Assembly: GCA_965227515.1 (NCBI GenBank)
Contig: CBDDFZ010000001.1
Span: 352,001 to 416,000 of the forward strand
Direction: 5' to 3'
Source of the DNA: Alphaproteobacteria bacterium
GTDB taxonomy: Bacteria; Pseudomonadota; Alphaproteobacteria; CALKHQ01
Length of the DNA: 64,000 nt
Shown piece after piece: positions 44,930 through 59,140 of this stretch. The notes beneath the pieces were generated by a model. It was not told the DNA's origin. It did not search any database and saw only the letters and a program-made list of their open reading frames with translations. The number at the start of each line of letters is the position of its first letter. Position 1 is the first letter of the stretch. The position numbers and the translations under genes were made by a program.

Positions 44930-45907
44930 CTAATCCCTTATTGCCTTAAAGGGTTTTTTGTCTAGGATAATTCTAACTTCGTTTAGATCATCTAATGCCT
45001 TTGGATCAAGAGCCAGAAGATGATATAGATCTTCAAATGCGCTGTGCCCACATTGGTCCTTGATTTTTTCCACAAATTTCTCCGACGAGGTTGTTTTTTC
45101 GATAAGATCAATTACGCGCTCCGCCGCTATTCCATATTTAACTTTCACATAGTCGACGAAATTGTTTTCGCGAAGATCATGTATCTTTCTGATATGCTGT
45201 AGTCTTTCTTCTTCTTGTTCTATTAGTTTCGTGGAATCCTGTGGCGATACGGCCCTCACAATTGTTTCAAGATATGATTTCAATGTTCCATTTATTGATT
45301 TGAGATCGTCAATTTGAGTAGCGAGGGCCTCCAACTGCACGCGATTCGATTCTCGACTCAAAAAATCTCTGAATAGCCCAGCCCACTGCTCCCTCAGCCA
45401 GCCTTCAATTTCCCTGACATTATCAAAAGGATGGACTGGATTATTGCGAGGCCGATTCAATATATCTTCAATTAGTCGAAAAATGTTAATTGAGTCCACG
45501 TGTGCATACTCAATACCTAAATTGTCTCTGTTTCGCAGAAATGTTCTGTATTCCGCATAAACATTTTGCTCAATTAGAATGTAAGTTGCCACATCTCTTT
45601 TTACCGCTTGGTCAAACTCCTTTTTTGTAATACTATCATAACGCTCAAAAAATGTGGGTTTTGGCTGAGGATCCTCCGAACTTGCAGCACTCCCATATCT
45701 ACCTCCAATAATCAATACATATATGTCTACATTATCTACTTCTCTATAGCAAGATTCATCGAGCGGCAAATCGGGAGAGTATGCAATGTCACCTTTTTCA
45801 GACAACACTGGCTCAAAGCCCAAAGATTCTATAAAGTTATCAAGTGAAGACCTAAGATACTTTAGATCATAGTAAGTTGAACTTATAAATACACGCGGCT
45901 TTGGCAT
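44930..45907 (-). CDS. DUF4062 domain protein, AT-rich, probably horizontally acquired
   Basis: '[11 protein letters not shown]...R', '[11 protein letters not shown]' and 'SITKKE' DUF4062 signature; coiled-coil C-half. Confidence 0.85.
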
Positions 45908-49377: not shown

Positions 49378-49749
49378 CTAACCCACGTCCTTCCACACGC
49401 CATTGGTGTCGCGGCAGGCGGTATCGGATTCACTGCGCGTACCGCTGTCCTCCACGAACGTCACTGTGTAGTCGCGGCAGAACAGGCCCGACTGGGTTTG
49501 GTAGGTGCGCACCGGCAACACAGTCCCCTGGTGCCCGGTTGCCGCATCCTGCCAAGATTCCGCCACCCCGCTCGGATTGCCCTCCAGCGCAATCTGGATC
49601 GCGGTGCGAACGACACCGCTGCGCGCGGGTCCGTTGCCGCTGCCGCCGCTATTCAGCGACAGGCACCCGCCCAACAGCATCGCCGTCAGGCAGGCGATTG
49701 TCGTACGCCGATACGCCGACGCGCGCACGGAAACGCTATTGCCAGCCAT
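49378..49749 (-). CDS. Lipoprotein with 17-kDa surface-antigen-like (RT0821/Lpp0805-type) domain
   Basis: Lipobox LGG-C; 'ALE...W......G...PVRTYQ...G.FCRDY...TACR...G.W'; overlaps the upstream Hint gene by 14 nt. Confidence 0.75.
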   Translation of the reverse strand: MAGNSVSVRASAYRRTTIACLTAMLLGGCLSLNSGGSGNGPARSGVVRTAIQIALEGNPSGVAESWQDAATGHQGTVLPVRTYQTQSGLFCRDYTVTFVEDSGTRSESDTACRDTNGVWKDVG

Positions 49750-50752
49750 TTTCGATCAGCTCCTGCTCCTCGGACGCGGTCAAATCGTCCCCAACCTGAC
49801 GAAGGTCCTCCGGATCGGGCGCCTGCCCATCGAAATAATCGAAGGAACCGCCGCTTTGGCCGGATTGGCCGCTGAAACCGCTTTCACCCGAGCCGCCGCT
49901 GCCGCCTGAACTGCCGCTGCCGCCAGAGCCGCCGGACCCACCACTGCCGCCGGAGCCGCCAGACTCGCCGCCACCCGAGCCCGAACCGCCGGAATGGCCA
50001 TCGTCGTCATCATCGTCGTCGTCGTCATCGCCGCCGCCGGAGCCGGAGTTGCCGCCACCGCCGGGACCGGAATTGCTGCCGCCGCCGTCATCGTCGTCGT
50101 CGTCATCGCCACCCTTGTTGTGCACCAGGTAGCCGTCCGCGAAATACGTATGGTCGCCGGCCAGGAGCAGGTTGAAGACCTCCAGCTCGGGATCGGCGTC
50201 GTGCGCGTCGATGGACACCACCGTCTCGTGGTCCATTTCGACCACCGGTCGCGGCGCCAGGGCGGTCGCCCCTTCGCTAAGGCTCGCCATCTCCACCCGG
50301 CCGCGCGCCAGCCGGTCGCCGGGGGCCAGCGTTGACACCGCCATCGACGCAACCATGCCGGGGGCCTCGCGCCGCGTCGCCATGGCGTCGATCGCTTTCC
50401 AGCCGTTGGCGGTCATGAACGGGTGTTCGTCGGTCACGAACGGACGACCGCCGTTGAAGCCGTAAAGCTTGCGGCTGCCGAGCCGGGGCCGCTCGATGCC
50501 GATCACACGGTTGGCCCGGCCGCCGCGCCCCATTACCAGCATGCCGACGGCGACTTGCGCGATCGGCAGGCTGCGGCCGTTGGCCAGCAGTACCTCGGTC
50601 TCGCCAGTGAAGCACGACGACGCGTGGGCCGCGTTCAGAATGCCGTCGTCCGTGCCGGTGGGCAGGGTGACCGGCGCCGTGGCCATGGTCAGCGCCACCA
50701 GGCTTGTGGTCGCCAGCAGGCGTGCGTTACGGCGGAATGAGTTCCTTGGCAT
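49736..50752 (-). CDS. Exported Hint-domain (intein-like) precursor with Gly/Ser/Asp-rich C-terminal tail, 338 aa
   Basis: RBS GGGAGG; signal-like leader ending AHA; Hint block A CFTGET (Cys47), block B VTDEHPF, block F VFNL...DHTYFADG, block G LVHN (Asn212). Confidence 0.85.
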   Translation of the reverse strand: MPRNSFRRNARLLATTSLVALTMATAPVTLPTGTDDGILNAAHASSCFTGETEVLLANGRSLPIAQVAVGMLVMGRGGRANRVIGIERPRLGSRKLYGFNGGRPFVTDEHPFMTANGWKAIDAMATRREAPGMVASMAVSTLAPGDRLARGRVEMASLSEGATALAPRPVVEMDHETVVSIDAHDADPELEVFNLLLAGDHTYFADGYLVHNKGGDDDDDDDGGGSNSGPGGGGNSGSGGGDDDDDDDDDDGHSGGSGSGGGESGGSGGSGGSGGSGGSGSSGGSGGSGESGFSGQSGQSGGSFDYFDGQAPDPEDLRQVGDDLTASEEQELIENGWQ

Positions 50753-50806
50753 CTCCAACCTCCCGATCGTCAGCCATGCCGCGGTTATGCCCCGCGGGAA
50801 CAATGC

Positions 50807-50841
50807 CGATAACGGCGCGACGCGGCTTTCCATCCGCACAT
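50807..50841 (-). promoter_or_regulatory. Putative ECF-type promoter facing the Hint gene
   Basis: Minus strand ATGTGCGGATGGAA-N11-GCCGTTATCG, twin of the motif at 50854-50888. Confidence 0.55.
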
Positions 50842-50853
50842 GAAACAAGATTA

Positions 50854-50888
50854 ATGTGGCGAAGGAATATGTGCCTGGGCCGTTATCG
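50854..50888 (+). promoter_or_regulatory. Putative ECF-type (autoregulatory) promoter facing the sigma gene
   Basis: ATGTGGCGAAGGAA-N11-GCCGTTATCG with CGTT -10-like element. Confidence 0.55.
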
Positions 50889-50926
50889 CATGTGGACAGG
50901 GACAAACATGGCCGAGCCAGCCACGC

Positions 50927-51472
50927 ATGGATGAACTCAGCGGTCGACGCATGATCGAGATGCTGCCACGACTGCGGCGCTTCGCCTATGGCCTGTGCGG
51001 CGATCCGCATGACGCCGACGACCTGGTGCAGCACACATGCCAGCGGGCCATCGACCGGTTCGACAACTGGCGGCCCGGCACCAGCCTGGAAAACTGGATG
51101 TTCGCCATAGCGCGCAATGCCTACCTGGACCTGTACCGCAGCCGACAGGTGCGGGCCGACCATGCCGCCGCCGTGCGCGCCACGACGGACGGCAGCCTGG
51201 ATGGCGAAGGGCGCGCGGAGCATGGCGTGATGATCGGCGAGATTGTGCCGTTGCTTGGCCGGATGCCGGAGGATCAGCGCACTGCCCTGCTGCTGGCCCT
51301 GGTGGAGGGCCTGAGCTACCAGGAAATCGCCGATATCCAGCAGGTCCCGGTCGGCACCGTGACCAGCCGCATCGGCCGTGCCCGTCAGACCCTGCAGCAG
51401 GCCCTGTCCAGCGAGGCCGGTACGCCGCATCAGCGAGAAGGAGGTGAGTTCGATGTCGCACGCCGTCAGTGA
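50927..51472 (+). CDS. ECF RNA polymerase sigma factor
   Basis: LPRLRRFA..L.G...DADDLVQ, WMFAIARN and GLSYQEIA....VPVGTVTSRIGRAR. Confidence 0.93.
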   Translation: MDELSGRRMIEMLPRLRRFAYGLCGDPHDADDLVQHTCQRAIDRFDNWRPGTSLENWMFAIARNAYLDLYRSRQVRADHAAAVRATTDGSLDGEGRAEHGVMIGEIVPLLGRMPEDQRTALLLALVEGLSYQEIADIQQVPVGTVTSRIGRARQTLQQALSSEAGTPHQREGGEFDVARRQ

Positions 51473-52106
51473 CGCGACCCTGATCGCCTACCATCATAAC
51501 CGCCTGTCCGAGCGCGAGGCCAGGGACGTTGCGGCAACCCTGAAGGCGGATCGCGAGGCCGCGGTGCGCCATGCCGCGCTGGTGACCGAGATCTCCCTGC
51601 TTGGCGTCGCGGTCGGCCGCATCGACCGCCTGCCCGCGCCGCCCGAGGCCGAGGACATGATCAGAGCGGCCACCACAAGCGGACCGCGCCGGTCCAACCG
51701 TGGCGCGGCCTGGCTCAGCCGCGGCGCTGCGTTCCAGGCGCTGGCGGCGTCGCTGTTGCTCGCCATCGGTGTTGCCGCCGGCTTCGCGGTGGCCGAATGG
51801 CGCCACGCCCGCGATGCCGAGAGCCAACGTATCGCCGCCCAAGACCTGGAGCAGGCCCGCGCCCACAGCCGGCAGACCGCGCTGAACATGCTGGCCAGCG
51901 GCAACTCCTACCTGCTCGCCGCCGACGACCGGAGCTGGACGGTCGAGGTGATGCCGGTGCGTACGTTCCAGAACGCAAACGGCGCGTTCTGCCGCGAATA
52001 TCGGGAGACCTGGCAGCTCGGCGCCACGGTAGGTGAGAGCTACCGCATCGCCTGCCGCGACGAGGTCGGCAACTGGCAAGCGGTTGCAACGCTGCAAACG
52101 AGCTGA
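51453..52106 (+). CDS. Membrane-anchored anti-sigma factor with C-terminal surface-antigen-like domain
   Basis: RBS AAGGAGG; N-terminal 'L.AY....L' anti-sigma domain; TM 'ALAASLLLAIGVAAGF'; C-terminal PVRTFQ..NG.FCREY...ACRD..G.W. Confidence 0.8.
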   Translation: MSHAVSDATLIAYHHNRLSEREARDVAATLKADREAAVRHAALVTEISLLGVAVGRIDRLPAPPEAEDMIRAATTSGPRRSNRGAAWLSRGAAFQALAASLLLAIGVAAGFAVAEWRHARDAESQRIAAQDLEQARAHSRQTALNMLASGNSYLLAADDRSWTVEVMPVRTFQNANGAFCREYRETWQLGATVGESYRIACRDEVGNWQAVATLQTS

Positions 52107-52119
52107 TGGCCGAGGGGCG

Positions 52120-53058
52120 GTGCACGTGATCAACGGCAAGGCGCTCGCGGACCAGCGCACGGCGGAAGGCGCCGATCCGCCCGTTATCGACATGCGCGAC
52201 AAAGGCATCGGTGATCTGGTGGTCACCTGCTGGCTCGCCCACAGTGCGGCCGCTGTCGGCCGCGAGCTGCGCATCAACCCGCGTGGACTGGACACGGTGT
52301 GCCATCTGCTCAGTGTCACCGCACCGGTGCTGACCACGGCGGACGCCGACAACTGGGCCAAGACCGACGGCATCGGTCACCGCTTCGAGTACGCGCAGGT
52401 GGCGCAGGGCCGCCCGATGACCCGCTTCGGCGCCTGGGCGCAGTCGCTCGGCCTGCCGGGCCTGCAGCCGGTACGACCGCGCTACAGCGAGGCCACCGAC
52501 GAGGCCGACTGGGCGGAGGAGGCATGGGCGGCCTCGGCCGAGCCGGGCCAGTTGCGGGTCGCCATGTTCCCGGAGGTGGCGTGGCTGATACGGCGCTGGC
52601 CGCCGGCCTATTTCATCGACCTCGCCGACATGCTGAAGGCCAAGGGCGCGGCGATTGTGATGGTCGGGGCAACCAAGGACATGGTCAGCCAGATGGGCAG
52701 CCGCTGGTATGCCGCCTTCCCGCTGCCCCGGACGGCCGCGTTGATGGCCCGCGCCGATATCGTGATCGGCAACGATTCCGGGCCGGCCCATCTGGCCGGC
52801 ACCATCGGCACGCCGACCTTCGTTGCCGCCGGCCCCACCGACGGCGACCTGGTGTTCGCCCATGACGACAATGTGCGCTGCGTCGGCCTGCCGCCGGGAA
52901 GGCTCGCCTGCCACCCCTGCCACTACGCGGTCGCGCGCGGCTATCGCGACGCCTGCAAGGTCGGCGGCTGCCAGGCGCTGATGACGCTGACCCCCGACGC
53001 GGTGTTCGACTGGCTATGGCCGCAAGTGAAGTCTGCGTCGGTACGCAAGGACAGGTGA
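52120..53058 (+). CDS. Glycosyltransferase family 9 (heptosyltransferase-like)
   Basis: GIGDLV, RRWP...F, 'IGNDSGPAHLAG..GTPT...GPT' and C-terminal CHPC...C...C; GTG start inferred. Confidence 0.82.
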   Translation: MHVINGKALADQRTAEGADPPVIDMRDKGIGDLVVTCWLAHSAAAVGRELRINPRGLDTVCHLLSVTAPVLTTADADNWAKTDGIGHRFEYAQVAQGRPMTRFGAWAQSLGLPGLQPVRPRYSEATDEADWAEEAWAASAEPGQLRVAMFPEVAWLIRRWPPAYFIDLADMLKAKGAAIVMVGATKDMVSQMGSRWYAAFPLPRTAALMARADIVIGNDSGPAHLAGTIGTPTFVAAGPTDGDLVFAHDDNVRCVGLPPGRLACHPCHYAVARGYRDACKVGGCQALMTLTPDAVFDWLWPQVKSASVRKDR

Positions 53059-53146
53059 TCCGCGCCGTCGTACTAAACTCTGGCAGCACGGTATCCGACG
53101 TCTACATGGACAACAGCTGTTGTATAGTGGCGTCAGCAACACCCTA

Positions 53147-54194
53147 GAGCGGGATCGTTTTATGCGGAAGCGTATCCTGCATTGACGATGTAGTTGTTGC
53201 ATTCGTGTGGCTGGAACGCGTCGAGTAGTTTTCCGATACGCCGCCATGTGTCGTCGATGGTGCGCTCTGCGGCGCGCCTGAGCAGGTGCTTGAGCTTGGC
53301 GAACACCTGCTCGATGGGATTGAGGTCGGGGCTGTAGGGCGGCAGGAAGAGCAGCCTTGCGCCGGCTTGGCGCAGGGCGGCCCGTACGGCCTTGCCCTTG
53401 TGGCTGCCCAGGTTGTCCATGATGACGATGTCGCCGGGTTTGAGCGTCGGCACCAGGATTTGCTCGACATAGGCGAGGAAGGCCTGACCGTTAATCGGGC
53501 CGTCGAAGACGCACGGTGCGGTGAGCTGGTCGCAGCGCAGAGCAGCGAGGAAGGTCAGGGTGCGCCAGCGGCCGTGCGGTGCCTTGCCGACGAGGCGCCG
53601 GCCGCGCCGGCTCCAGCCCCGCAACGGCGCCATGTTGGTCTTGGCCCAGGTCTCGTCAATGAAGACCAGGCGGGCGGGATCAAGTTTCGCCTGATGACGC
53701 TTCCAGCGCGCGCGGCGCCGCGCCACGTCGGGACGATCCTGCTCGCTGGCGAACGCGGTTTTTTTTGAAGCTCAATCCCTCGGCATGCACAAAGCGCCAG
53801 ATCGCGCCGTAGCTCACCCGGATGCCGCGATCGGCCAACTCGCGCTGCAAGGAGCGCAAGGGAAGGTGCGGCTCGGCAGCCAAACGAGCCTGCACGAAGT
53901 CGCGATGCGGCGCCAATATGATCCGCTTGTGGCCACCGACCTTGCCCGGCGCAACGCTCCCGGTGCGCCGATATCGCTGCGACCACTTCACAACCGCAGA
54001 CACGCTCACATCGAACGCGGATGCCACAGAGCGAACCGTCTCACCGGCCATCACCCGGGCAACAGCACGCTCACGAAGATCATTCGAATAGGGTCGACCC
54101 ATCGCGCCAGCCTCCTCTCAAGACCAACACGTTGAATCAGATTGCCACCCGAGTCGGGAATCCCCTTTCGATTCTTCCAAAAAAGACCCCGCTC
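53147..54194 (-). mobile_element. IS630-family insertion sequence (TA duplication)
   Basis: CTA|GAGCGGG ... CCCGCTC|TAG inverted ends; two-ORF transposase. Confidence 0.9.
53160..54102 (-). CDS. IS630 transposase (HTH ORF 53680-54102 plus DDE ORF, joined by a frameshift at an A8 run)
   Basis: YSNDLRER HTH; FIDET, MDNL..HK and LPPYSPDLNPIE; T8 at 53759-53766 on + strand. Confidence 0.9.
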
Positions 54195-54266: not shown

Positions 54267-55568
54267 TCAAGTACTCGTCGATAGCCTGTTGGCAATGGGG
54301 TGATCGGGTTGAAGAGAGACATTATCTTGTTCAGCCTTCAGCCGAACGAAACCTCTAATTACCTTCTCGGTATACTCATACCAACCTTGGCGTGTCCCGG
54401 TTAATATCGACCCATGGGCTGGCTGTTTCAGTCTATTAATTCTTTGATTGAATTGTGTACGACTCAGGGCCGGACCAGAACATTCTTTCATTATTCTATT
54501 GTATGAGCCAAAAATATCTGTGCTACGTCGTTTCAATTCATGACCGTCCGCTGCTGCCCAAAGTATATATTTGTAGTCATCGCTGTATTTTTGCGTTGCA
54601 GTCTCATACGGGCCTTTTAGCCGCATTTCCATCGCGTCAGCAGCATCCGCCATAGCTTGTTCAAAAAGAGGAGCGGTAACCTTACCTCCGTTTTCTGCAT
54701 GAAAGACTCTCCAAAATAGTTTCTCCGAAATAAAATGAACGTAATGAGGAAAGCCATCGCTAATACGAGCTATTCTTATTATCGTAGTTTCATCGATTTC
54801 TATCTCAAGTTTATTTGCCGCAAATTTTACTATTTCAAACCTCGCCTCCCACGGCAATTGCCCGAGATTAACCGTATGAAAATATCTATCGGCGCTGCCA
54901 TGAGCAGCCATAATAGCATCTACGCTTTCACCTAAACCACAAAAAATAAATTTAGATGAAATGTGCTTGTCTGATATCTGTTTTATAAAATTGGTAAACA
55001 GTTCTTGTTCTCCCCTATTTACAATTTGATCAAACTCATCGATTATCACTACAGGCTGATCAGCATACGTTTCGGATAGAAATTTCATCAATCGAACGGC
55101 TTCATTTACTGAACTTGGCTCATTTATTTGACCTTCATGCATTGTCTTGCTACTACCCAAGGTAATGCCAAATTTCGCAAACTCTACCTTCTGCTGCTTT
55201 ATATTCGCAATGACAAGAGGGCTTTTTGCTGCTGCCTCGTCAAAAATGTCACGAACTACGCTGCCAAAACTACTTTGTGTATCGCATCCAATAACAATTG
55301 GATCTGCACTTGCCCCAGCGGCGATACCAAAAGCAGCTGTTTGAGCAAGAGAAGACTTACCCACACCTCTCAATCCGTGTATTAATACATGTCGACCTTG
55401 TTGATATAATGCTTGCTTGATACCTGCTAATTGTTCAGCACGACCTCGGAGGAATTCTTCTGATTGCAATGGCTGAGCGGGCGACAATACTTTCGCCAAA
55501 GCCATACCGAACTGATGCTCTTGCTGAGTTGATACGGGGCCCAAGCCTGGAAGGATTTTGTTTGCCAT
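54267..55568 (-). CDS. AT-rich AAA+/P-loop ATPase with probable C-terminal winged helix
   Basis: 'FLRGR', Walker A GLRGVGKSS, Walker B VVIIDEFD and 'SDGFPHYV' (GxP-like). Confidence 0.8.
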   Translation of the reverse strand: MANKILPGLGPVSTQQEHQFGMALAKVLSPAQPLQSEEFLRGRAEQLAGIKQALYQQGRHVLIHGLRGVGKSSLAQTAAFGIAAGASADPIVIGCDTQSSFGSVVRDIFDEAAAKSPLVIANIKQQKVEFAKFGITLGSSKTMHEGQINEPSSVNEAVRLMKFLSETYADQPVVIIDEFDQIVNRGEQELFTNFIKQISDKHISSKFIFCGLGESVDAIMAAHGSADRYFHTVNLGQLPWEARFEIVKFAANKLEIEIDETTIIRIARISDGFPHYVHFISEKLFWRVFHAENGGKVTAPLFEQAMADAADAMEMRLKGPYETATQKYSDDYKYILWAAADGHELKRRSTDIFGSYNRIMKECSGPALSRTQFNQRINRLKQPAHGSILTGTRQGWYEYTEKVIRGFVRLKAEQDNVSLQPDHPIANRLSTST

Positions 55569-55641: not shown

Positions 55642-55716
55642 TGGTGCCGCCGGGGTGAATTGAACACCCGACCCCACCCTTACCAAGGGTGTGCTCTACC
55701 CCTGAGCTACGGCGGC
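55642..55716 (-). tRNA. tRNA-Thr(GGT)
   Basis: GCCGCCGTAGCTCAGGGGTAGAGCACACCCTT-GGT-AAGGGTGGGGTCGGGTGTTCAATTCACCCCGGCGGCACCA folds as a cloverleaf with encoded CCA. Confidence 0.97.
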
Positions 55717-57860: not shown

Positions 57861-59140
57861 TGTATGGCCCGGGGACATGGTTGACAGTTGTTCGGAGACA
57901 TAGCTGACACATTGATGGTTGGATTTTTCTCATATTGTAAGGTCGATGTCAGCGATCTGGGTTGCGCCGAAGAAGACGCTGTAGCGTCCGTCGTTGCCGC
58001 GCGGCCTGATGGCGAGACGCTCGCCGGCGAAGGCGCGTGGCACGGGCCATAGCCTTCCCTTGAAGCTGACGTAGAACTTGGTTGCCCCGACCTTGCGGAC
58101 GATGTCGTCGGGTCCGTATTCGGGCTCGGGCAGGGTGTCGGGCATGGGTCGTGTCGAGGGCCGGTAGCGACTGGCCGGCACGTTCATGTCCAAGGCCTGG
58201 TGCGGCCGCTCGGAGTTGTAGACCGGGCGCCATTCATCGAAGGCCTGTTGCACCTGGGCGAGATCGCGCAAGCGTCGCAGCGCGAACACCTCGGCGTCCA
58301 GGGTGCGGTGGAAGCGCTCGTTCTTGCCGCGTCCTTGCGGGTGATATGGGCGGGCGTGGATGACCTCGACGCCGAGCTTCAAGAGCCACACCCTGAGTGG
58401 GGTCCACTGCCCCGGCACCCCGCCGCCCCAGGGCGAGCCGTTGTCGAGGTAGAACGCATCGGGCAGACCGTAGAGCCGGAACGTGCGCGCCAGCAGCTGC
58501 TTGACCGTGGCCGTGCGCTCGTTGTCGCATGCGTGCAGGCACAACGAGAAGCGCGAGTGATCGTCCAGCACCGTGAGCGGGTGGCACCACAGGCCGCGGT
58601 CGACCTGCACCCGTCCCTTGAAGTCCATCTGCCACAACTGGTTCGGCGCCGGCCGCTCGAAGCGCGTGTAGGCGTGGCTTGTCTGGCGTCGCGGCGGCAC
58701 CCGCTCGTGGCGCTGTAAGATCGCATGAACGGTCGATGCCGAAGGCGGGGCGATCCCGTCGCGTTCGAGGCAACGGGCGATCTTGCGCGCGCCCCAGGCC
58801 GGATGCGCATCGCGCACCGCCAGCACGGCCGCCTCGATCCGCGCCTCCGTGCGGCGCGGGCTGTGGCGCGGCCGACGCGAGCGATCCGCCAACCCTTCCC
58901 CCGCACAGCCCGCCCGACGCAGCCATTTGTGCCCGGTCTGGCGGCTGATCCCGAACCGCGCGCACAACGCGCTCACGTTCGCGCCATCCAGAGAGGCAAG
59001 CATCACAAACTCACGCCGTTGATCCACGATCGACACCTCTTGCCAAGGCATGGCCGACTCCAAAATCGGAAGCCAACCACACCAATAAGAGTGTCAACCA
59101 TGTCCCCGAACGCCTGTAAGCTATCTCCCCGGGCCGAACA
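57861..59140 (-). mobile_element. IS481-family insertion sequence, copy 2 (1280 bp, 5-bp TSD CTTGA)
   Basis: Near-identical reverse complement of 32916-34195; CTTGA at 57856-57860 and 59141-59145. Confidence 0.95.
57930..59063 (-). CDS. IS481-family DDE transposase
   Basis: Protein identical to that of 32993-34126. Confidence 0.95.
   Translation of the reverse strand: MESAMPWQEVSIVDQRREFVMLASLDGANVSALCARFGISRQTGHKWLRRAGCAGEGLADRSRRPRHSPRRTEARIEAAVLAVRDAHPAWGARKIARCLERDGIAPPSASTVHAILQRHERVPPRRQTSHAYTRFERPAPNQLWQMDFKGRVQVDRGLWCHPLTVLDDHSRFSLCLHACDNERTATVKQLLARTFRLYGLPDAFYLDNGSPWGGGVPGQWTPLRVWLLKLGVEVIHARPYHPQGRGKNERFHRTLDAEVFALRRLRDLAQVQQAFDEWRPVYNSERPHQALDMNVPASRYRPSTRPMPDTLPEPEYGPDDIVRKVGATKFYVSFKGRLWPVPRAFAGERLAIRPRGNDGRYSVFFGATQIADIDLTI

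Follow-up and report, generated by a model that had tools for sequence, protein, structure and literature searches.

A candidate self-encoded periplasmic ligand in an ECF26-like sigma/anti-sigma cassette of Alphaproteobacteria

We analyzed a 64,000-nucleotide stretch of an alphaproteobacterial genome (the window; assembly GCA_965227515.1, contig CBDDFZ010000001.1, positions 352,001 to 416,000) that contains a cassette of two divergent operons: an extracytoplasmic function (ECF) sigma factor, a membrane anti-sigma factor and a GT9-family glycosyltransferase in one, and a precursor with predicted export and a lipoprotein in the other. We give about an even chance to this cassette being an ECF26-like autoregulated envelope circuit whose periplasmic ligand is self-encoded, as a short conserved tail at the C-terminus of the precursor. 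The initial annotation had placed the signal-making step in autoprocessing of the precursor by its Hint domain; that proposal was not supported, as the Hint is absent from many cassettes, cleanly lost or decayed, with the tail unchanged.

Results

The five open reading frames and their tight spacing are as first annotated. On the forward strand, the sigma (50927..51472, 181 aa) overlaps the anti-sigma (51453..52106, 217 aa) by 20 nt, and the glycosyltransferase (52120..53058) follows after a 13-nt gap; on the reverse strand, the precursor (49736..50752, 338 aa) overlaps the lipoprotein (49378..49749, 123 aa) by 14 nt. Pfam and NCBIfam matches mark one of the five genes as an ECF sigma, one as a GT9 and one as a PF16998 lipoprotein. 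The precursor consists of a leader, a Hint domain, a Gly/Ser/Asp linker and the tail; other than Hint, no Pfam family matches this kind of gene, and a Hint-less precursor retrieved only unnamed clusters, with scores under 0.9, from the protein atlas.

The cassette recurs around precursors of this kind. A scan of species-representative genomes kept 75 Hint loci, which we divided by eye from the N-terminus into 50 with a leader directly before the Hint and 25 with the Hint in other proteins. A related sigma lies beside 46 of the 50 leader-Hint genes and a full anti-sigma beside 43, compared with none of the 25 same-clade Hints in other proteins, which bears out the suggested co-occurrence of ECF sigma, anti-sigma and Hint; two of the four sigma-less loci begin at a contig edge. 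The same 50 loci hold a tail in 44 cases, a lipoprotein-type gene in 33, a PKHD-type dioxygenase in 19 and a GT9 in one, and all of these are absent from the 25 controls. Nineteen close precursor homologs share the leader, A-x-A, Cys, Hint, His-Asn-Lys-Gly and low-complexity linker, 15 of them with the same end motif. The cassette occurs in Alphaproteobacteria (Kiloniellaceae, Rhodovibrionaceae, Geminicoccaceae, Sneathiellaceae and others) and in marine Gammaproteobacteria, with Pelagibius, Oceanibacterium, Zavarzinia and Marinobacterium among the cultured carriers.

Starting from the anti-sigma gave a similar association. Twenty anti-sigma loci fetched from a 401-genome class sample included 12 with a PF16998-type domain; nine of these had tail hits, one an internal tail (by eye), one was cut off by a contig break, its tail lying on a different contig, and one had no adjacent tail, while none of the remaining eight, non-PF16998-type loci had a tail beside it. 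A phylum-wide sample yielded the tail in the window genome only (1/401), by a short-profile search that overlooked a known positive (G095), and the cassette appears uncommon rather than absent across that sample. Among phages the tail pattern had no matches, and 70 viral Hint loci gave no tail, sigma or anti-sigma hit. We found no description of the cassette in the openly readable literature or in the accessible part of the PMC7826278 supplement.

The tail (49739..49804, reverse strand) is the candidate ligand. Its consensus is F.G...P.GPDL[ST]..EE...I..GW., it has no Pfam family, and the structure model of the precursor places a helix at residues 326-334 after a confident Hint core and a disordered linker. 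Of 118 profile hits, 116 have the motif GPDL[ST]xxEExxxIxxGW at the C-terminus, and its E, I and W never vary. At one locus (L129, 5854-7146) the motif is internal to the precursor and followed by a further domain. A tandem second precursor occurs in several operons, often one with and one without Hint (L011, L013, L017, L023, L025, L048, L155, L160 and L163).

An exported precursor with a Hint, a C-terminal cargo and a small downstream gene resembles the Hint-processed polymorphic toxins, in which, in the accessible part of PMC3482391, Hint domains release C-terminal toxins. This gene order could be read as a Hint-released antibacterial peptide, with the lipoprotein conferring immunity and the sensor carrying the same domain as the lipoprotein. 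We consider that reading very improbable: the cargo is one short, constant and non-enzymatic motif, not a variable enzymatic domain, it has no family match and a fixed link to an ECF/anti-sigma pair, and the supposed immunity gene can be missing.

Ahead of the Hint, the leader (residues 1-44; 50621..50752, reverse strand) has a basic N-region, a hydrophobic helix at 6-25 and a long C-region up to A-x-A, whose A42 is invariant among relatives and where we infer a signal peptidase site. Some Hint-less precursors (L082, L083, P0035, P0038 and P0082) have twin-arginine-like leaders in place of the usual one, and the export route seems interchangeable, judging by these leaders. Behind the Hint, the acidic linker (49805..50116, reverse strand) is predicted to be disordered and is highly variable among relatives in both length and sequence. 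The initial annotation had Hint cleavage free an acidic peptide. The predicted Asn-cleavage product is indeed acidic (net -28), but at 126 aa it is a polypeptide and not a small peptide, conserved only over its last ~22-25 aa.

The Hint domain (C47-N212; 50117..50614, reverse strand) is optional across the family. A tail-only profile retrieves Hint-less precursors in the same cassette, and against 1.84 billion representatives, a set clustered at 50% in which Hint forms are under-counted, the tail profile gave 18 hits with the Hint His-Asn motif, 71 with a hydrophobic leader and no such motif, and 29 fragments or unclear cases, 118 in all. Fourteen genomes with a PF16998-type anti-sigma (12 of the 20 fetched loci, plus G000 and G354) comprised nine with Hint-less precursors, four with Hint-bearing ones and one with Hint and tail as separate open reading frames. 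Scanning metagenomes for the tail pattern gave 95 stretches; the 76 loci read fall into 55 distinct contexts and again show Hint-bearing and Hint-less precursors next to sigma, anti-sigma, lipoprotein and PKHD genes. Loss can be clean: P0011, with a Hint, and P0028, without, are identical at 34 of 43 residues in the leader and at 31 of 33 in the tail. Ten aligned proteins form a decay series of intact, truncated, degenerate and absent Hints ahead of the same tail; these sequences are metagenomic, and misassembly may account for individual cases. The Hint-less rows are scattered over a quick sigma tree, where 9 rows require 7 changes. Because the Hint is lost or decayed across cassettes while the tail stays, we do not count it as part of the core.

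The same Hint clade occupies Gly-rich stretches at 70 viral loci. It is common in large phage proteins (viral contigs L251-L320), some with tandem Hints or a Hint at the extreme N-terminus, and also occurs in 3,500-4,000-aa Bacteroidota proteins (L051, L056 and L057). The Asn-cleavage product, which would start Lys-Gly-Gly, is predicted to lie close to the signal-peptidase product of Hint-less forms. Since Hint-bearing and Hint-less genes would yield nearly the same mature chain, the Hint is probably a mobile, self-removing passenger.

By structure and motifs, the domain fits a type A bacterial intein-like (BIL) domain. The top Foldseek match of its model is Tetrahymena BIL2 (6tmm, E 1.9e-8), and the 60 matches at E<=0.001 are, among those listed, all inteins, BILs or Hedgehog; Pfam Hint matches fall slightly below cut-off (PF05203, 31.7 versus 32.1 bits). 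At 166 aa (151-165 aa in relatives) it has no homing endonuclease. The window precursor has C47, block B T107 and H110, the C-terminal H211-N212 and K213; C47, T107 and H110 are invariant across 20/20 aligned rows, and C1, block B TxxH and His-Asn are intact in 53/53 rows listed. In all 53 of these rows the +1 residue is Lys and never Cys, Ser or Thr, as a class 1 intein would have. Fold, Cys1, block B, His-Asn, absence of a +1 nucleophile and of an endonuclease, and a site in a variable region are shared with type A BILs as described in the accessible parts of PMC4031507 and PMC7765530, and in type A BILs cleavage dominates (PMC4031507). The present domain differs in being inserted directly behind a predicted signal peptidase site, within a regulatory cassette, and in belonging to a clade with a fixed Lys at +1 that is common to many phage proteins.

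These intact residues would suit a distinct class of sensor in which Hint chemistry is the regulated step of Hint-bearing cassettes, as redox-, metal- or folding-gated cleavage or as ligation of the short N-extein or leader to the +1 Lys. The nearest structure, BIL2, ligates to a lysine and is zinc-switched, according to the accessible part of PMC8616854. We nonetheless hold a regulatory Hint chemistry to be improbable: the +1 Lys characterizes the Hint clade at large (57 of 61 phage rows), the Hint is repeatedly lost cleanly or decays, and self-removal alone would preserve the catalytic residues. The same phage rows led us to reject the +1 Lys as a cassette-specific trait.

The anti-sigma and the lipoprotein share a domain, as the initial annotation had noticed. 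The lipoprotein, with an LGGC lipobox (C29), a single PF16998 domain and a conserved Cys pair, passes the gathering score of Pfam PF16998, the 17 kDa surface antigen family (34.7 versus 26.6 bits, E 1.7e-8). The window anti-sigma gives a weak match, below cut-off (0.07), and the anti-sigmas of three relatives score above the cut-off; profiles of the two families align over 88 columns (probability 99.8, E 1e-30). On these alignments, the lipoprotein is a paralog of the anti-sigma periplasmic domain. Anti-sigma domains run 5-10 residues beyond a conserved Trp as an extra strand, often aromatic-ended (alignment A3), and lipoprotein copies typically end 3-5 residues beyond it. A lipobox-like motif is present in 18 of 34 small partner genes, and the remainder resemble plain exported proteins. 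Some Hint-less cassettes have, in place of the lipoprotein, a larger protein with a C-terminal PF16998-type domain sited after the anti-sigma (L126 3783-4682, L138 3258-4238 and L127 5706-6638; a weak DUF3108-like match in two).

The window anti-sigma has a cytoplasmic anti-sigma domain, one membrane helix and, at residues 117-217, a periplasmic PF16998-type domain with the extra C-terminal strand, modeled as an N-terminal helical domain, one long membrane/stalk helix and a helix-plus-sheet domain. Its N-domain gives middling fold matches to RsiW (Z 6.7, root-mean-square deviation 3.4, 70 residues aligned) and RslA (Z 6.3, 4.5, 60 aligned). It lacks zinc-finger cysteines, with no Cys in residues 1-75; PF13490 matches the anti-sigmas of three relatives, one over cut-off. 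In the protein atlas the anti-sigma falls in unnamed or 'surface antigen' clusters. Sequence comparison of the PF16998 domain with solved structures found no relative (four matches, E 0.4-1); a fold search found none at E<=0.001 and another comparison had a best Z of 7.3, a common level, which is not evidence for a new fold.

We next asked which partner the tail tracks, comparing divergence at 37 of 53 loci, with loci with two tails or no lipoprotein excluded; the loci are related and so do not count as independent. Among the 25 that bear a Hint, tail distances correlated with those of the anti-sigma periplasmic domain at rho 0.58, compared with 0.16 for the lipoprotein, 0.20 for the cytoplasmic anti-sigma domain and 0.43 for the sigma. 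The Hint of the same gene had no such preference (0.40, 0.34, 0.35 and 0.25 for periplasmic domain, lipoprotein, cytoplasmic domain and sigma), and 0/25 equal-length Hint windows reached 0.58. Partial correlations over the 37 loci were 0.37-0.38 versus 0.16-0.20. The lipoprotein is absent beside Geminicoccaceae cassettes that keep sigma, anti-sigma and tail (for example L029, L039, L042, L043, L047 and L077), so it is not obligatory, and there the tail is kept with the anti-sigma. The co-divergence, a weak test on related loci, is a lead and suggestive only; with the co-occurrence it lends suggestive backing to the earlier idea of the anti-sigma as reader of the C-terminal segment.

These data also bear on whether the acidic chain serves purely as an output, binding metals or cations in the periplasm, with its tail docked on the lipoprotein or another partner while the anti-sigma senses something else. 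Linkers are rich in Asp, Glu and His, tail-less His/Asp-repeat genes can occupy the same position or operon (L128, the first gene of L017), and the PKHD dioxygenase, present in 19/50 loci, belongs to a family that appears in iron-uptake papers, as far as their accessible parts indicate. We regard this explanation as unlikely, since the tail persists without the lipoprotein and tracks the anti-sigma domain, not the lipoprotein, and linker length and sequence are unconstrained. The His/Asp-repeat proteins have the same kind of leader, lack the tail and stand in precursor position with or without Hint (L128 1140-1520, the first Hint gene of L017, and P0020); such tail-less exported proteins are possible metal binders, judging by their repeats.

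Twin promoter-like motifs between the operons, noticed in the initial annotation, were recovered with a family matrix. The motif was derived from 59 regions upstream of sigma genes, with the matrix trained without the window. The gapped word GGGA-N18-TGTT occurs in 29/59 regions against a shuffled maximum of 7, and the derived consensus is GGGA[AT]GAAA-N13-GTGTT, of which GGAATAAA variants occur. The motif GGGAAGAAA-N13-GTGTT is found in both orientations in 40/59 upstream regions and in none in 20 shuffle rounds; at least one site is present in 47/59, against a shuffle mean of 0.75. The window has one site facing the sigma/anti-sigma/GT9 operon (50858-50887, forward strand, 14.5 bits) and one facing the precursor-lipoprotein operon (50837-50808, reverse strand, 14.6 bits), and 0/2000 base shuffles reach either score; both are predicted sigma-dependent promoters. 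A first-guess register, GGAA-N13-CGTT, was superseded by the family-derived GGAA-N17-TGTT, and a sigma-70 consensus scan of the inter-operon region found nothing.

In the genome G001 cassette parts are split over three contigs, and an unlinked Hint gene (17.4 bits) and an unlinked GT9 (19.7 bits, with no other site in 13 kb exceeding 8 bits) both carry the motif, as a regulon would predict. A genome-wide matrix scan of the window genome gave 77 sites above 11 bits, many intragenic, and we claim no further targets. The window genome has a second ECF/anti-sigma pair (L145 1533-3821; G000:C1, about 3.28 Mb) with a pair of sites of this promoter type (20.4 and 18.8 bits), and it faces short unannotated genes.

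The initial annotation counted the glycosyltransferase among the cassette genes; this did not generalize, as a GT9 is adjacent in only 1/50 related loci, though recurrent in one lineage. The gene satisfies Pfam PF01075 and falls short of the NCBIfam lipopolysaccharide-core heptosyltransferase equivalog cut-off (best 38.2 versus 134.6 bits); its database copy (P0145) begins two codons further in, at 52126. It has few close relatives (14, at 41-74% identity): in L038 and L158 they come after the lipoprotein, in G001 they stand alone with a promoter, and in P0148 GT9 is fused behind an anti-sigma, possibly by frameshift. Matches in the 401-genome sample were confined to G000 and G001. No PKHD gene lies next to the window cassette, the genome's only homolog being on C2 at 44% identity. 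From their distribution, GT9 and the PKHD dioxygenase are lineage-specific accessories, with GT9 probably in the regulon; that GT9 glycosylates the Ser-rich linker is a guess. Hydroxylation of the tail proline by the PKHD enzyme was rejected by eye, because PKHD loci L007, L011, L013 and L022 have tails without that Pro.

To the right of GT9 lie two insertion-sequence-like sets of open reading frames, a split transposase pair directly after it (window 53144-54102), presumably IS630-like from its motifs, and an integrase-core frame (57930-59063). Between them are a low-GC AAA/STAND-like ATPase (54267-55568) and a tRNA-Thr (55642-55716), and this flank is possibly the edge of an island. At 44930-45907 a low-GC DUF4062 gene is inserted next to a sugar ABC transporter operon.

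Discussion

The closest described relatives of this cassette are the ECF26 modules (S. meliloti RpoE1/E3/E4/E6, Starkeya SigE, Pseudomonas PrtI), which in the accessible part of PMC7826278 share with it a proteobacterial ECF, a single-pass anti-sigma at +1, a conserved -1 gene and autoregulation; the promoter given in the supplement, GGAATAAA (-35) and GTT (-10), matches the window-family type. The -1 genes described there are catalases, subtilases, chitin-binding, enoyl reductase and secreted-repeat proteins. The leader-(Hint)-tail gene is not among these types, no Hint appears in the accessible part of the supplement, and its sole mention of a 17-kDa antigen concerns an ECF26s12 neighbor among housekeeping genes. 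The window anti-sigma differs further in itself carrying PF16998 and in the absence of zinc-finger cysteines. The sigma, whose best NCBIfam model is PRK12511, below cut-off (124.9 versus 185), is ECF26-like judged on promoter type and context. We conclude that the cassette probably works like an ECF26 module, and we do not assign it to ECF26 because it differs in the zinc finger and in the type of -1 gene. Autoproteolysis is also tied to ECF signaling in the RsgI and FecR-type systems (PMC10328401 and PMC12036975, as far as accessible), in which the anti-sigma cuts itself, whereas here the predicted cut lies in a separate exported protein and is optional.

In the circuit that we favor, the sigma would transcribe both operons from the twin promoters, as their conservation suggests. 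The precursor would be exported, and signal peptidase, with Hint Asn cyclization where a Hint is present, would leave a floppy acidic chain ending in a short conserved helix; the Hint would at most add a timing step. The tail helix would bind the periplasmic PF16998 domain of the anti-sigma, and we lean toward binding that stabilizes the anti-sigma as the most likely outcome, so that loss, degradation or sequestration of the chain would let the sigma fire. The lipoprotein, co-translated with the precursor and likewise a PF16998 protein, would act as a second, dispensable binder that sets the threshold, and GT9 and the PKHD dioxygenase would be accessory outputs. A metal or cation sensed via the acidic linker is a guess at the outside cue.

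RseB and MucB, the partner proteins of the sigmaE-RseA-RseB and AlgU-MucA-MucB systems, give negative feedback. As there, a sigma-regulated periplasmic partner is proposed to act on the outer domain of the anti-sigma; here, that partner is not folded but a disordered chain with a motif of ~22 aa, and a separate lipoprotein gene encodes a sensor-domain paralog. We favor negative feedback because of this analogy and the loss of the lipoprotein.

Feedback of the opposite sign, with the tail as an activating peptide signal in a positive or cell-to-cell loop, is the circuit of the initial annotation minus its need for the Hint. The tail would trigger destruction of the anti-sigma, and the lipoprotein would soak it up until a threshold is reached or lipoprotein maturation fails. 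The co-occurrence and co-divergence data fit this equally, and translational coupling of precursor and lipoprotein and the tandem second precursors at several loci speak for it. We judge it doubtful, yet a stronger contender than an output-only chain: an unbuffered positive loop would run away in the Geminicoccaceae loci without an adjacent lipoprotein, and it is not evident how a 126-aa chain would cross the outer membrane.

Several observations weigh against the negative-feedback circuit itself. PF16998 is common outside the cassette (the profile matches 256/401 sampled alphaproteobacterial genomes, in many cases only across the periplasmic part), so the domain has roles independent of the tail. 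Over all 36 loci the lead of the periplasmic domain over the sigma is small (0.48 versus 0.41; positive in 78% of resamples), and 4/25 Hint windows had an equally large lead. The sign of the feedback is drawn entirely from the RseB/MucB analogy and lipoprotein loss. The sigma tree is quick and mostly unresolved, its starred branches forcing only 2 changes, and the Hint residues intact in every listed row are compatible with a useful role where the domain is present. In G001 the gene opposite the sigma encodes a His/Asp-repeat protein without a tail, and cross-talk with the second ECF of the window genome, of the same promoter type, is possible.

We suggest, as somewhat less than an even prospect, that this Gram-negative ECF circuit has genes for three parts: a peptide ligand of its own, in the form of a C-terminal helix on a disordered chain that is exported, a receptor/anti-sigma in the membrane, and the receptor domain again as a free copy. 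The ligand would be the first for the widespread PF16998 domain and may pass between cells, and a phage-shared BIL would move in and out of the ligand gene and may gate release. For most ECF sigma factors we know of no established cue, and here comparative data name a candidate ligand of ~22 residues together with its receptor domain. In addition, a single host gene preserves a record of the arrival, loss and decay of a BIL domain, and this is relevant to the question of whether BILs have a function or are passengers. If true, a peptide loop that is self-encoded and includes a free copy of the receptor would be an unusual Gram-negative design, and a ligand for PF16998 would be the first handle on a family matched in 256/401 sampled alphaproteobacterial genomes.

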